DNA of 64,000 nt, from the NCBI GenBank assembly GCA_903875465.1, contig CAIQWB010000135.1:8962-72961 (forward strand). Reading direction: 5' to 3'. The notes beneath the pieces are model-generated. The model did no database searches, was not told the DNA's origin, and saw nothing but the letters and a program-made list of their open reading frames with translations. The DNA is from an uncultured Verrucomicrobia subdivision 3 bacterium. GTDB lineage: Bacteria > Verrucomicrobiota > Verrucomicrobiia > Limisphaerales > UBA11358. Of the stretch, positions 12,124-18,843 are shown in pieces. A program made the translations under genes and the position numbers. How positions within the stretch are numbered: position 1 is the stretch's first letter; every line of letters starts with the position of its first letter.

Positions 12124-13179
12124 ATGCCGGCATTGCTTACACTTGCAACTGAAGACTTGCAACATGTGCTGACCCACACCGGTGCAATGTGGGAATCCGC
12201 GCGGGGTCAGTCTTTCTTTATCACCGGGGGCACGGGGTTTTTTGGCCTGTGGCTGTTGGAAAGTTTTGCCCATGCCAATGACCAATTGCAGTTGGGGATG
12301 CGGGCTACCATCCTCACCCGGGATCCGGCGCGCCTGGCCATTACCATTCCCCATTTATTCGCCCGGCAGGATTTGAGGTGGCTGGCGGGAGATGTCCGAT
12401 CATTTCGCTTTCCGCCAGGAAATTTTACCCACGTCGTTCATGCTGCCACGGCGGCCAGCGCGCAGCTGAATGAAACGAACCCCCGGGAAATGCTGGATGT
12501 GATCGTGGCCGGCACCCACCGGGTGCTGGATTTTGCCGACCAGGCCGGGACCAGCAAATTGCTGCTCACTAGCTCCGGGGCGATATACGGCCGCCAACCC
12601 GCAGACTTGATCCGGGTGCCGGAGGATTATGCCGGCGCCCCGGATCCGTTGCTACCGGGTTCGGCCTATGGGCTGGGCAAGCGCGTGGCTGAGCATCTTT
12701 GCGCGGTGCGGTGCCCGCAGTTTGGTTGCGAAGCCAAAATTGCCCGGGGGTTTGCCTTTGTGGGCCCCCATCTGCCCTTGGACGCACATTTTGCCATCGG
12801 GAATTTCATCCGCGATGCCTTGCAAGGGAGATCCATTCGGGTGAACGGTGACGGCACACCCCGGCGCAGCTATCTTTACGCGGCAGACCTGGCCATCTGG
12901 TTGTGGACGATCCTGTTCCAAGGCACCTCCAACCGGGCTTATAACGTGGGATCGGCGGACGACGTGAGCATTGCCGAGCTGGCCGAAACGGTTCGTCAGA
13001 CTTTGGGTGGTCCAGGCCCGGTGGAAATTTCCTCGTCCGCCGTGCCCGGCCGGGCGGTGTCGCGCTATATTCCCTCTTTGGAGCGGGCCGCCGTGGATTT
13101 GGGCTTGCAGGCAAGGGTGCCACTGACCGAAGCTATCCGCCGCACCGCCCAATGGCATCAAACCCCATTTGCGGTTTAG
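12124..13179 (+). CDS. NAD-dependent epimerase/dehydratase (extended SDR)
   Basis: TGGTGFFG, SSGAIYG, YGLGK (YxxxK) and GDGTPRRSYLY. Confidence 0.88.
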   Translation: MPALLTLATEDLQHVLTHTGAMWESARGQSFFITGGTGFFGLWLLESFAHANDQLQLGMRATILTRDPARLAITIPHLFARQDLRWLAGDVRSFRFPPGNFTHVVHAATAASAQLNETNPREMLDVIVAGTHRVLDFADQAGTSKLLLTSSGAIYGRQPADLIRVPEDYAGAPDPLLPGSAYGLGKRVAEHLCAVRCPQFGCEAKIARGFAFVGPHLPLDAHFAIGNFIRDALQGRSIRVNGDGTPRRSYLYAADLAIWLWTILFQGTSNRAYNVGSADDVSIAELAETVRQTLGGPGPVEISSSAVPGRAVSRYIPSLERAAVDLGLQARVPLTEAIRRTAQWHQTPFAV

Positions 13180-13194
13180 GTTCGCTTGTTAATT

Positions 13195-15000
13195 ATGATT
13201 CGGGTTGCTGATTATATCGCCCAAACTCTGGTTCGCCACGGTGTCCGCCATGTTTTCCTGGTCACCGGCGGCGGGGCCATGCATTTGAATGACGCTTTGG
13301 GGCGTTGTCCCGGACTCGAACTGGTCTGCTGCCACCACGAGCAGGCTTGCGCCATGGCCGCCGAAGGTTATTTTCGCACGTCCCATCGACTGGCGGCGGT
13401 CAATGTCACCACCGGTCCCGGGGCGACGAATGCCATTACCGGGGTATACGGCGCCTACGTGGATTCCATGGCCATGGTGGTGGTTTCTGGTCAGTCCAAG
13501 TGGGAAACCCTGGTGCGCAGCACCCCCCTTCCCTTGCGGCAGTTGGGCGATCAGGAGGTGGATATTATCAGGATGGTGGCGGGCATCACCAAATACAGTG
13601 TGTTGGTGAAGGATCCGCTAAGCATAAGGTACCACTTGGAAAGGGCCTTGCATTTGGCCTTGAACGGCCGGCCCGGGCCCGTCTGGCTGGATGTGCCCAT
13701 CAATGTCCAGGCCACCAAAGTGAATCCGGCGGCCTTGACCGCCTATGATCCAGCCGAGGACGCGCCGGCTTATTCGACGGCTGATTTGGGCGCCGCCGTG
13801 CAAGCGATCATCGCACGTTTGCAAACGGCCGAACGACCGGTGATTTACGCAGGGACGGGCATCCGGCTGGCGGGTCAATATGAACTCTTTCTGGAACTGG
13901 CAGGACGGCTGGGCGTTCCAGTGGCGACGGCCTGGAATTCCAATGATTTATTAATGGACGACCATCCCGCCTATGCCGGGCGGCCCGGATCACTGGGCAA
14001 TCGCGCGGGTAATTTTACCGTGCAGAACGCAGATTTCCTACTGATCTTGGGCAGCCGCCTGAACATCCGGCAGGTGAGCTATAATTGGGAAAACTTTGCG
14101 CCCCGGGCGTTCAAGGCCATGGTGGATGTGGATGCGGCCGAGCTCCAAAAACCAACCCTGAGTATTGACCTGCCCGTGCATGTGGATTTGCGCGACTTCC
14201 TCCCCGCCCTGGCGGAGGCCACCACCAACTGGCAGCCCCGCCACACCGGCTGGCTGGTTTGGTGTCGCGAGCGGTTGACCCGTTATCCGGTGGTTCTGCC
14301 CGAATATTGGGCGATCGCCGACAAGGTTAATCCCTACTGTTTTATGGACCGCCTGTTCAAACGGCTGGCGGAAAACGAACTGGTCGCCTGTGGGGATGGC
14401 ACCGCCTGTGTGACTGCATTTCAGGCGGCGACCATCAAGCCCGGGCAGCGCCTGTTCCACAATTCTGGTTGCGCTTCGATGGGTTATGATTTACCGGCCG
14501 CCATTGGCGTGGCCATGGCGTTTCCAGGCCGCCGGGTCATTTGTCTGGCGGGCGATGGCAGCATCATGATGAATTTGCAGGAACTACAAACGATTGTGGG
14601 CCGCCAGTTGCCCGTGAAAATTTTCATCCTGAATAACATGGGCTATCATTCCATCCGCCAGACCCAGCAGAACTTTTTTGCCGATAATATCGTCGGCTGC
14701 GGCACGGACTCCGGGCTGAGTTTTCCCGACTTTGGCCGGCTGGCCCTGGCCTTTGGGCTGCCTTTCCAGCGCTGTCATCGTCACGCCGAACTGGATGCCA
14801 CCATTGCGGAAACCCTGGCCAGCCCGGGCGCGGCGGTTTGCGAGATCATGCTCGATTTGGCACAAGTCTTTTCCCCCAAGCTCACTTCCCGCAAACTGGA
14901 GGATGGTCGCATGGTGTCCTCTCCCTTGGAGGACATGGCGCCGTTCCTCAGCCGGGAGGAATTGCAAGCGAACATGGTGACGCCAATTTCAGTCTCGTAA
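13195..15000 (+). CDS. Thiamine diphosphate-dependent enzyme (acetolactate-synthase-like fold; likely sugar carboligase)
   Basis: VTGGGAMHL, HHEQACAMAAE, TTGPGATN, MGYDLPAAIG and the ThDP motif GDGS...NN. Located inside a glycan locus. Confidence 0.88.
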   Translation: MIRVADYIAQTLVRHGVRHVFLVTGGGAMHLNDALGRCPGLELVCCHHEQACAMAAEGYFRTSHRLAAVNVTTGPGATNAITGVYGAYVDSMAMVVVSGQSKWETLVRSTPLPLRQLGDQEVDIIRMVAGITKYSVLVKDPLSIRYHLERALHLALNGRPGPVWLDVPINVQATKVNPAALTAYDPAEDAPAYSTADLGAAVQAIIARLQTAERPVIYAGTGIRLAGQYELFLELAGRLGVPVATAWNSNDLLMDDHPAYAGRPGSLGNRAGNFTVQNADFLLILGSRLNIRQVSYNWENFAPRAFKAMVDVDAAELQKPTLSIDLPVHVDLRDFLPALAEATTNWQPRHTGWLVWCRERLTRYPVVLPEYWAIADKVNPYCFMDRLFKRLAENELVACGDGTACVTAFQAATIKPGQRLFHNSGCASMGYDLPAAIGVAMAFPGRRVICLAGDGSIMMNLQELQTIVGRQLPVKIFILNNMGYHSIRQTQQNFFADNIVGCGTDSGLSFPDFGRLALAFGLPFQRCHRHAELDATIAETLASPGAAVCEIMLDLAQVFSPKLTSRKLEDGRMVSSPLEDMAPFLSREELQANMVTPISVS

Positions 15001-16819: not shown

Positions 16820-17908
16820 ATGAAACGGGATATTTTCGAAAATCTCTTTGTCCTTGAAATGACCAACAACCACCAGGGCAGCCTGGAACGCGCGCTCGCG
16901 ATCGTTCACGAGCACAGCCGGGTGGTGCGGTTCAACAATGTCCGGGCCGCCATCAAACTGCAAATCCGGGATGTGGACGCCTTCATCCATAAGGATTTTC
17001 GCGGGCGCACCGATGTCCGTTATATCAAGCGGGTGCTGGACACCCGCCTCACCAAGGCGGATTACACCATCCTGGTGGAGGCCATCAAGAAAAGTGGGTG
17101 CATTCCGATGGCCACCCCATTTGACGAAAAATCCGTGGATTTGTGCGTGGAGTTCAATCTGCCCATCATCAAGATTGCCAGCGCCGACAGCAATGACTGG
17201 ATGCTGATCGAGCGCATCGCCGCCACCCGCAAACCCTGCATCATTTCCTTCGGCGGGACGCCGCTCAAGGACATGGACGACGTGGTGACCTTTTTCGAGA
17301 ACCGCAATATCCCGCTTGCCATAAATCATTGCATTGCCGCCTATCCCCATGAGGACTCCGAATGCGAACTGGACCAGATCGATTTTTTCAAGAATCGCTA
17401 TCCAGGTCACACCATCGGTTGGTCCAGCCATGAGTGCCGGGACTGGGCCACCTCCATGCACATCGCCTACGCCAAGGGGGCCCGCACCTTTGAACGGCAT
17501 ATTGACATTAACAATGACGGTTTTAAAGTGGCCGATTATTCTTCGCTGCCCAGCCAGGTCGATCAATGGTTCAAGGCGTTTCATAAAGCTGTGGAATTCT
17601 GTGGCACGGCCAGCACCGAGCGGAAAAACCCGCTGGTCAAGGAAACCGCCTATCTGGATAGTTACATTCGTGGCATTTATGCCCGGCGCGATCTGGCACC
17701 CGGTCAGACCTTGAGCGAAGAGGATATTTATCTGGCCATTCCCCTACAAAAAGGCCAGTTATCCTGCCGGGAACTCATGCTGGGCCGCTTTGGTCATAAA
17801 ATGACCCAAGCCTGCCCCAAAGATGCACCGTTACTCATCGACCTGGTAGATTCCCCGTATTCCCAAAACGAGTCTTTGAAACAATTGATCTACCAGCGCG
17901 GTTTATGA
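16820..17908 (+). CDS. NeuB/SpsE family PEP-dependent synthase with C-terminal SAF/AFP-like domain
   Basis: [39 protein letters not shown] and FERH. Confidence 0.87.
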
Positions 17909-18843
17909 AGTTTTCGCCCATCGCGGACCATGTCGCGCGACCGAAGTGGTCGGTCATGATCCCGACCTACAACTGCGCCGAAACCTTGCGCCAGACGCTC
18001 CAGAGCGTGCTGGTTCAAGATCCTGGTCCAGCAGTGATGCAGATCGAAGTGGTGGATAATTGCTCCACCATAGACCGCCCGGAGGATCTCGTGCAGGAAC
18101 TGGGGCGGGGCCGGGTCTTATTCCATCGCAACCCTGAAAACATTGGACCGACGCGCAATTTCAATATGTGCATCGAGCGCAGCCAGGGAGCGCTGGTGCA
18201 CATCCTGCATGGCGATGATTTTGTCCGTCCCGGTTTTTATGAACGGCTGGGGGCGCTCGCTGATTTGCATCCTGCGGTTGCCCTTTATGCATGTCGGGCT
18301 TCCTTCGTGGATTTTAGCGGCACCGTCACCGGCGTTTCCCGCCAACTCCCCGGCTTGGAGTCGGCCAGCCGGGACAGCTCCCCTTTTTATTATGCCACCC
18401 CCCTGCAATATGTAGGGGTGGCGATTCGCCGGAGTTTTTATGAAAAACACGGTGGCTTTGATACCAGCTTCACGTTCTGTCCGGACTGTGAAATGTGGGA
18501 TCGGGCCGTATCCTTGGGCGGCGGGATTATGCTGCCCGAGCCCCTGGCGTGCTACCGCATGTACGGCCAAATGAACGGCAGCAACATGGTCCGCACCGCT
18601 GAACATTTTAAAGAGCTGGATCGGCTCGCCAGCCTTTATGCCCAGCGACATCCGGACTTTTCATGGGCCCGGCATCGGAAGCGTGTTGCCCGGGAGGCTT
18701 GGTCCCAAGCGGAGCGGTACCGCAAGTCGGGGGACACCGATGGTTATGCCGCGAATCTGCATTATTTTAAAAACTACGGAACCCTGCTGCAGAAAACGCG
18801 GCTGATGACCAAACGGTTCTTTAAAAATCTGGCTGGCAGCTGA
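17905..18843 (+). CDS. Glycosyltransferase family 2
   Basis: [14 protein letters not shown] and LHGDD. Start overlaps the NeuB-like stop (ATGA). Confidence 0.88.

Follow-up and report, generated by a model that had tools for sequence, protein, structure and literature searches.

Acyl-branched sugars have been brought under a unifying scheme by Steitz et al. (2022; PMC9306805), in which a pyruvate aldolase provides a gamma-hydroxy 2-oxo acid, a YerE-like enzyme adds it to cytidine diphosphate (CDP)-4-keto-3,6-dideoxy-D-glucose, and a YerF-like reductase reduces the product before a glycosyltransferase takes over. The clusters placed in this scheme are ErwE/F/I/J for erwiniose, MMAR_2331/2332 for caryophyllose, MyGE/MygI/MygF for gastriose and YerE/YerF for yersiniose (PMC9306805). 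The YerE-like family, in the available text of PMC12247030, comprises YerE (yersiniose), ErwE (erwiniose), MMAR_2332 (caryophyllose) and MyGE (gastriose), with further members predicted in Rhodopseudomonas and Spirochaeta. To these can be added JanthE, a YerE-like aldehyde-ketone carboligase that joins 2-oxo acids with ketones; the available part of its description reports its physiological substrates as unknown (PMC12188165). It accepts ketones and has a wide 2-oxo acid donor range (PMC12188165, PMC12247030). The branch of caryophyllose, given as 3,6-dideoxy-4-C-(D-altro-1,3,4,5-tetrahydroxyhexyl)-D-xylo-hexopyranose in the available text of PMC5706390, has a methyl end. We propose that a six-gene block at positions 12124-18843 of a 64,000-nucleotide stretch of an uncultured Verrucomicrobia subdivision 3 genome (GCA_903875465.1, contig CAIQWB010000135.1, positions 8,962 to 72,961; the whole stretch is called the window here) is most likely a variant of this scheme, that the variant is widespread, and that its point of real interest is the reaction of a dehydroquinate synthase (DHQS) relative, here called AroB-like. 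The best overall explanation, to which we give a probability of roughly 0.55, is that the product is a CDP-activated 3,6-dideoxyhexose bearing at C4 a long polyhydroxyalkyl side chain, of the yersiniose/erwiniose/caryophyllose class, destined for a lipopolysaccharide (LPS)-type glycan.

The open reading frames (ORFs) were typed by Pfam and by the curated cut-offs of NCBIfam; the family-search annotation spans approximately 8-37 kb of the window, and the remainder is covered by genome-wide searches. The block consists of six co-oriented ORFs on the + strand, which encode an extended short-chain dehydrogenase/reductase (SDR; labelled epim, 12124-13179; PF01370, 112.7 bits), a YerE/JanthE-like thiamine diphosphate (ThDP)-dependent carboligase (13186-15000) with TPP_enzyme_N, _M and _C domains, a short classical SDR of 223 amino acids (15005-15676; adh_short_C2, 158.6 bits), the AroB-like enzyme (15689-16759) with DHQ_synthase and DHQS_C domains, a NeuB-family phosphoenolpyruvate (PEP)-dependent synthase (16820-17908; PF03102, 117.8 bits, the NeuB family being its sole match), and a family 2 glycosyltransferase (GT2; 17905-18843; PF00535, 69.9 bits). 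The genes are separated by 6, 4, 12 and 60 nucleotides and the last two overlap by 4, through which the GT2 gene is translationally coupled to the NeuB-like gene. For the ThDP gene, an ATG three codons downstream of 13186 is an alternative start, and a longer antisense ORF opposite the short SDR (15023-15730) is without support. The co-oriented and tightly spaced order of epimerase/reductase, ThDP enzyme, SDR, AroB-like, NeuB-like and GT2 genes given in a preliminary description of this DNA is thus borne out by the ORF map and by Pfam and NCBIfam. The block shares with the published pathways a YerE-like ThDP enzyme, a candidate NAD(P)H reductase, a proposed builder of a gamma-hydroxy 2-oxo acid, a link to CDP-4-keto-3,6-dideoxyhexose and an adjoining glycosyltransferase. 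It differs in that a NeuB-family PEP-dependent synthase stands in for the pyruvate aldolase, in that the deoxy-keto-sugar genes lie on another contig, and in the addition of the AroB-like enzyme and the short SDR, neither of which is named for any cluster in the main text of PMC9306805, whose gene lists are in its supplement.

The closest solved relative of the ThDP enzyme is JanthE from Janthinobacterium sp. HH01 (PDB 8rph, 8rpi and 8rpj), which it matches over the full length with 457.3 bits, versus 233.5 bits for the next solved match, an acetolactate synthase. On the acetolactate synthase model TIGR00118 it scores 324.7 bits, below the cut-off of 538. The sequence has the motifs HHEQ at residues 50-53, which presumably holds the catalytic Glu, and GDG...NN at residues 456-484, which we take to be the cofactor-binding GDG-X(24-27)-NN motif. 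The YerE-type assignment of the preliminary description is therefore supported, and the enzyme is predicted to add a decarboxylated 2-oxo acid to a ketone. JanthE itself has a CDG motif whereas the window enzyme has the canonical GDG, as do 40 of the 41 relatives checked. The single relative with CDG (locus L111, G307:C120, 9955-11730) is encoded directly 3' of an RfbH-type gene and an extended SDR, a context suggesting that JanthE-type enzymes also act on CDP-3,6-dideoxy-4-ketohexose.

The ThDP gene is flanked by two SDRs, either of which is a possible YerF-like reductase. We regard the extended SDR as the candidate nucleotide-sugar reductase of the branched product, with a putative YerF-like role. 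It reaches no NCBIfam cut-off and its best solved relative is UDP-glucuronate decarboxylase (106.6 bits); an ortholog lies directly 5' of the ThDP gene in 8 of 30 ThDP-containing loci and also in loci L103-L106. The short SDR has the motifs TGxxxGxG, NNAG and S-Y-K and is predicted to be a ketoreductase paired with the AroB-like gene. Relatives of it occur at most 500 nucleotides 5' of the AroB-like gene in 61 of 80 loci. Among the 19 without this arrangement, ten loci are of the housekeeping type, three are short contigs, five are ThDP loci in which the SDR comes after the ThDP gene, and one is a further locus.

These 80 loci were obtained from named genome records with a profile of 24 AroB-like proteins; the neighbouring ORFs were clustered and representatives were scanned. 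A ThDP homolog is present in 30 of the fetched loci, which makes 31 ThDP-containing loci with the window, and they are distributed among Verrucomicrobiota, Acidobacteriota, Myxococcota, Cyanobacteriota, Armatimonadota, Planctomycetota, Chloroflexota, Bacillota (Lachnospiraceae), Elusimicrobiota, Nitrospirota, Pseudomonadota and one haloarchaeon. The wider cassette comprises a glucose-1-phosphate nucleotidyltransferase, an RfbH-type DegT protein, an extended SDR, the ThDP enzyme, the short SDR and the AroB-like gene, with an FGGY kinase, a HAD phosphatase and an ArnC/PgfS-like GT2 as frequent extra members. Since the same genes occur together in 30 other loci from many phyla, their co-occurrence is not due to chance. 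Few genomes of the window's own phylum carry the AroB-like gene, the TIGR04425 cut-off being reached in 2 of 201 sampled genomes, with one more at 362 bits. A match to the ThDP or the AroB-like protein in the plasmid collection was not found at the limits used.

The protein in the place of the aldolase belongs to the NeuB family but is far from the nonulosonate synthases. While it shares the NeuB TIM-barrel domain with NeuB, PseI, LegI and KDN-9-phosphate synthase, it falls far short on the PseI and NeuB models, with 117 and 102 bits against cut-offs of 340 and 400, and among solved structures it matches the uncharacterised 3g8r with 223.8 bits and true PseI and NeuB with approximately 70 bits. 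It differs from them also in having a ThDP carboligase as partner and no CMP-transferase or NeuC. In alignments to 3g8r and PseI inspected by eye it keeps the E..NH, KIAS, SxG, YP, SSH and ExH segments, which presumably form the metal and PEP sites. The type of donor enzyme varies across the 31 ThDP loci: 11 have a NeuB-like gene, 11 an HpcH-like aldolase, six an HMGL-family protein that is most similar, among named relatives, to 4-hydroxy-2-oxovalerate aldolases, and three have none of them. The three types are mutually exclusive, as no locus contains two (0/31), and in the window there is no HpcH-type or HMGL-type pyruvate aldolase, the NeuB-family synthase being in that place. One of the three loci without a separate donor enzyme (L013, 6706-9333) has a single ORF of 875 amino acids in which, according to Pfam, a YerE-like ThDP enzyme is fused to an HpcH/HpaI aldolase-like domain.

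The NeuB-like and ThDP genes are also found together where the AroB-like gene is absent. A search of 151 genomes of one betaproteobacterial family gave 13 with a ThDP homolog at E <= 1e-100, for 12 of which the context was fetched. Six of these loci contain rfbF-rfbG-rfbH, an extended SDR, two methyltransferases, the ThDP gene and, directly adjoining it, a NeuB-like gene whose product is 64-73% identical to that of the window; no AroB-like or short SDR gene is present in them (three with full context of 18-20 kb, three on short contigs). Five of the six genomes were searched for DHQS-family genes, and three of them have a single hit at housekeeping level (226-250 bits on TIGR04425) while the other two have none at E <= 1e-40. 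Hence the NeuB-like and ThDP enzymes work together without the AroB-like/SDR pair, which is an optional tailoring module. In cassettes that have the AroB-like gene the NeuB-like orthologs are 59-79% identical to that of the window, and because this range is matched by those without it the same, common aldose is probably used in both. We propose that the NeuB-like gene encodes a keto-acid donor synthase, predicted to make a 3-deoxy-2-ulosonic (2-oxo) acid, rather than a nonulosonate synthase. The suggestion in the preliminary description that the NeuB product serves as the ThDP donor is supported by the mutual exclusion with two types of pyruvate aldolase and by the adjacency to the ThDP gene in the absence of the AroB-like gene, and a branched-sugar route with a NeuB-made donor is in our view highly probable.

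The host genome, which is 96% complete, was searched as a whole for the aroB, acetolactate synthase, CTP_transf_3, NeuC/WecB and NeuB families. A separate housekeeping aroB is present on contig C102 (382.8 bits on TIGR01357), and a true acetolactate synthase on contig C122 scores 666.8 bits on TIGR00118. The one CTP_transf_3 gene of the genome is KdsB, there is no match to NeuC/WecB (PF02350) above the cut-off genome-wide, and the gene at 16820-17908 is the only NeuB-family gene. The list of genes said earlier to be missing from the window (NeuA, NeuC, aro and ilvH) therefore holds, as does the prediction that the NeuB-like product is not CMP-activated, for the genome has neither NeuA nor NeuC and its lone CMP-transferase is KdsB; the AroB-like gene is not the sole aroB, and a CMP-activated standard nonulosonate is not indicated. 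The standard reading of the genes as sialic-acid, acetolactate synthase and aroB functions is rejected on the basis of the curated cut-offs and of the true copies elsewhere in the genome, and, as judged from these family assignments, the operon is not a sialic-acid, branched-chain amino-acid or shikimate pathway. A further DHQS-family gene, the third of the genome, lies on contig C89 (L090, 4959-6131, - strand) and, with 533.5 bits, is assigned to the NF004852 type. None of the three ORFs that flank it matches an NCBIfam model at E <= 1e-20, and GFO-like, NTP-transferase-like and SIS-like genes are located 10-20 kb from it on C89.

The acceptor of the ThDP enzyme is indicated by rfbH, which is a marker of CDP-3,6-dideoxy-4-ketohexose synthesis. 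Seven of ten tested DegT-family genes from the ThDP loci are above the RfbH cut-off, and the remaining three, at 215-318 bits, still have RfbH as their top family. Ten further cassette genomes had no rfbH in the fetched stretch, and in seven of them it is found above the cut-off elsewhere, in some cases a few kb past the end of the locus; among 14 control genomes there was none (0/14). The rfbH association thus ties the cassette to the acceptor of YerE-like enzymes. In the window's own genome rfbF, rfbG and rfbH are all above their cut-offs and form one operon on contig C76 (L089, 5765-10648, - strand), which also carries RmlC-like and RmlD-like genes and is predicted to encode a CDP-3,6-dideoxy-L-hexose (ascarylose-like) pathway. 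These genes for CDP-3,6-dideoxy-4-ketohexose, being on another contig, were not seen in the preliminary description, and the general route was already published (PMC9306805).

The AroB-like enzyme, one of the differences from the published pathways, meets the cut-off of TIGR04425 (417 bits; cut-off 400) and misses that of aroB (263.7 bits on TIGR01357; cut-off 305). TIGR04425 is a hypothetical equivalog whose function is not experimentally established and which is named a putative cyclizing phospholyase; our literature search found no paper on an AroB-related sugar phosphate phospholyase of this type, and no relevant paper joining a DHQS-like gene with YerE-type enzymes or with the marinum lipooligosaccharide. 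Among solved structures its best matches are true DHQS enzymes (109-157 bits), followed by DOIS (107 bits) and the 4p53 cyclase (95 bits), and it is not closer to the EEVS, DDGS and DOIS cyclases than to DHQS. It shares fold families with AroB. Thirteen positions are conserved in it, namely R109, D125, K131, N141, E173, K176, K216, R230, N234, H237, H241, H253 and K314. They cover the catalytic, zinc, phosphate and carboxylate sites, and each is retained by 90% or more of 68 SDR-linked copies; their roles and their mapping to the numbering of the A. nidulans DHQS are assumed here. E173, H237 and H253, which we take to be the metal ligands by comparison with that enzyme, are all present, in agreement with the earlier claim of an AroB-like cyclase with intact metal-binding motifs. 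The carboxylate-binding positions equivalent to K216 and R230 are replaced in EEVS and DOIS and are kept here. Changes specific to the group are Q97 (G), C127 (S), I128 (V), G172 (A) and L213 (C). In a tree from a quick maximum-likelihood search, not a finished careful one, 68 copies, almost all of them SDR-adjacent, are split from 11 housekeeping-type copies that include the genome's own aroB, with support of 98 in the SH-like approximate likelihood ratio test (SH-aLRT), and the window copy falls in an 11-member clade confined to ThDP cassettes. The enzyme differs from AroB in its scores, in its separate branch and in its location in glycan operons beside an SDR rather than among shikimate genes.

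The conserved residues with presumed roles in binding the carboxylate and phosphate of 3-deoxy-D-arabino-heptulosonate 7-phosphate (DAHP) indicate that the AroB-like substrate is probably a free DAHP-like 3-deoxy-2-ulosonate phosphate and not a nucleotide sugar. They cannot, as a set, tell ring closure from a non-cyclising outcome. The consumers seen with the AroB-like/SDR pair are the ThDP enzyme in cassettes of the window type and a CMP-transferase in a second type, and both need an intact 2-oxo or ulosonic acid. Ring closure of the free acid would leave the ThDP enzyme without its 2-oxo acid, and the non-cyclising outcome is preferred for that reason. An FGGY sugar kinase is present in 12 of the 31 loci (in 6/6 of the HMGL type, 5/11 of the NeuB type and 0/11 of the HpcH type), a pattern which suggests that a terminal phosphate must be supplied and which fits phosphate as a leaving group. 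Given the methyl ends of the known long branches, the constant reductase and the occasional kinase, we prefer a step that converts the phosphate end into a methyl end, and this terminal deoxygenation by the AroB-like/SDR pair is put forward tentatively. Two other arrangements are not supported: long AroB-like ORFs in loci L015, L071 and L078 have no SDR domain in Pfam and are not taken to be SDR-AroB fusions, and a HAD phosphatase as a substitute for the AroB-like gene is at odds with the co-occurrence of both in fetched loci.

The second, ThDP-free type of cassette comprises 30 loci, among L019-L058, L066 and L076 (e.g., L020, 6639-17562, and L024). It contains the AroB-like/SDR pair together with GFO/IDH/MocA oxidoreductases, a GmhA-like SIS-domain protein, a D-2-hydroxyacid dehydrogenase, an HpcH aldolase, methyltransferases, an aminotransferase and a CTP_transf_3 cytidylyltransferase, and it occurs in SAR11, SAR86, SAR116, Thaumarchaeota, Methanoregula, Patescibacteria and others. 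Its product may be a CMP-activated modified ulosonic acid.

The favoured route would begin with the NeuB-like synthase. From PEP and an aldose, in all probability a tetrose phosphate, it would form a 3-deoxy-2-ulosonic acid, i.e., a gamma-hydroxy 2-oxo acid. This DAHP-like acid would then be tailored by the AroB-like enzyme and the SDR, preferably by NAD-dependent oxidation near the phosphate end, beta-elimination of the terminal phosphate and keto-reduction, which would leave a methyl end and keep the 2-oxo acid. The YerE/JanthE-like ThDP enzyme would decarboxylate the acid and transfer the acyl anion onto the C4 ketone of CDP-4-keto-3,6-dideoxy-D-glucose, an acceptor that would be provided by rfbF/G/H on contig C76. 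Finally, the extended SDR would reduce the new side-chain ketone in the fashion of YerF, and the coupled GT2 would transfer the sugar. We infer each of the substrates, the order of the first three steps and the non-cyclising nature of the second.

Several points weigh against this route. All characterised members of the DHQS superfamily, to our knowledge, cyclise their substrates, and since the full DHQS residue set is kept, ring closure would be the default by precedent. Moreover, ring closure of the enol-pyranose intermediate of DHQS takes place spontaneously in solution, so that a product without a ring is more difficult to reach. A kinase is also missing from the window, so the tailoring step needs the NeuB-like enzyme to take a phosphorylated aldose. 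The other 30 ThDP loci all have the short SDR directly 3' of the ThDP gene as well, and for that reason it could act as the YerF-like reductase instead of pairing with the AroB-like enzyme. With respect to the acceptor, three of the ten cassette genomes mentioned above have no rfbH above the cut-off, the window itself contains no rfbF/G/H and is unlinked to the supply genes, and the C76 operon with its own RmlC-like and RmlD-like genes could be self-contained or serve another sugar.

In an alternative reading, the AroB-like enzyme is a genuine cyclase whose ring ketone is reduced by the SDR, giving a cyclitol-bearing or carbocyclic branched sugar of the caryose/bradyrhizose kind. We consider it unlikely. 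The substrate of the enzyme could be the DAHP-like acid or a phosphorylated side chain already grafted onto the CDP-sugar. The complete DHQS catalytic set, the cyclising precedent of the characterised relatives and the TIGR04425 name all speak for this reading, a ring ketone would account for the constant SDR partner, and in the available text on bradyrhizose the genes are unassigned beyond an 11-gene cluster holding a dTDP-glucose 4,6-dehydratase (PMC4743980). However, a cyclised free acid would be lost as a 2-oxo acid to the ThDP enzyme and as an ulosonic acid to the CMP-transferase of the second cassette type, while the conserved carboxylate-binding positions argue against a substrate in which the carboxylate has already been replaced by a CDP-sugar. 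In addition, the extended SDR, which could reduce a side-chain C1' ketone, is retained and would be redundant if the ring closes there, and the cassette could not be linked to any organism known for a carbocyclic sugar. The specific form of the idea, in which a true cyclase operates in a nucleotide-sugar pathway so that the C4 branch is, or joins, a carbocycle (a C-C-linked cyclitol-3,6-dideoxyhexose, or a caryose- or bradyrhizose-like ring), appears somewhat less likely still. If it were true, the ring-forming step still missing for carbocyclic LPS sugars would be found, and the pair in the cassettes linked to a CMP-transferase would make carba-analogues of ulosonic acids. The preliminary description had proposed a branched or carbocyclic LPS sugar, and of this the branched sugar with the NeuB product as ThDP donor stands, while the carbocycle is neither shown nor favoured.

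The AroB-like enzyme and the SDR might instead act upstream of the branched-sugar route, producing an unusual aldose or aldehyde (e.g., an omega-deoxy aldose from a sugar phosphate) that the NeuB-like enzyme or the aldolase would then condense with PEP or pyruvate. The main text of the published scheme leaves the origin of the deoxy-aldehyde partner of the caryophyllose-type aldolase unexplained (PMC9306805), and the fusion of an aldolase domain to the ThDP enzyme in locus L013 fits an aldolase step that feeds the ThDP enzyme directly. Such an upstream role is nevertheless improbable, because NeuB-like orthologs that are equally close to that of the window with and without the AroB-like gene probably use the same common aldose, and because the presumed carboxylate-binding positions are kept in the AroB-like enzyme whereas an aldose phosphate has no carboxylate. 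Finally, the generic database names of the relatives ("3-dehydroquinate synthase," "acetolactate synthase," and "spore coat polysaccharide biosynthesis protein E") would allow an ordinary mix of a nonulosonate synthase, an acetolactate synthase and a spare aroB brought together by chance in a glycan locus, but this is very improbable given that all three proteins are below the curated cut-offs of those families, that true aroB and acetolactate synthase genes are present and NeuA and NeuC absent elsewhere in the genome, and that the gene set recurs as a unit across phyla.

The favoured reading, a CDP-3,6-dideoxyhexose with a long C4 branch built from a NeuB-made acid, has several implications. 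Caryophyllose and other long-branched sugars are rare in bacterial envelopes, difficult to detect and of immunological relevance, and the carboligase reaction is the only step in their synthesis for which in vitro tests exist. The cassettes described here would spread the branched-sugar route over many phyla, including archaea and uncultured lineages, and would mean that the keto-acid donor can come from a relative of sialic-acid synthase in place of an aldolase. They would also bring in a conserved relative of dehydroquinate synthase, for which terminal deoxygenation without ring closure, or ring closure in a glycan pathway, would each be new chemistry for the family in this setting. In addition, they offer a physiological context for enzymes of the JanthE type, which serve in biocatalysis; what these act on in nature is reported as unknown.

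Upstream of the block, a terminator-like hairpin at 11575..11603 (+ strand; a 13-bp stem with 11 G-C pairs and a T-rich tail) follows the malate dehydrogenase gene mdh (10550-11545; 503.9 bits on NF003916) and is the upstream boundary of the operon; a search for hairpins found none comparable within the cassette. The rest of the glycan locus lies 3' of the six genes at 18868-25174 and was typed by Pfam. It contains three further GT2 genes (18868-19833, - strand; 19957-20757 and 20583-21551, + strand), a gene of the GT9 heptosyltransferase family (21548-22558, + strand), a gene without an assigned family (22560-23435, - strand) and one for a GT-C/PMT_2 ArnT-like enzyme (23519-25174, - strand). 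The GT2, GT9 and ArnT-like GT-C genes downstream indicate that the setting is an LPS-type glycan locus. A Wzx, a Wzy or an ABC exporter was not seen by Pfam among the ORFs scanned up to 37.5 kb. The GT2 ORFs at 19957-20757 and 20583-21551 overlap by 175 nucleotides as listed, and the true start of the second, which is given with a TTG start, is probably further downstream. On the - strand, following the gene for a DUF4143/AAA_14 ATPase (29873-31492), the stretch at 31914-35404 has a low guanine-plus-cytosine content (46-48% versus approximately 60% elsewhere) and two large ORFs (504 and 669 amino acids) without a Pfam match, and it is possibly an acquired island.

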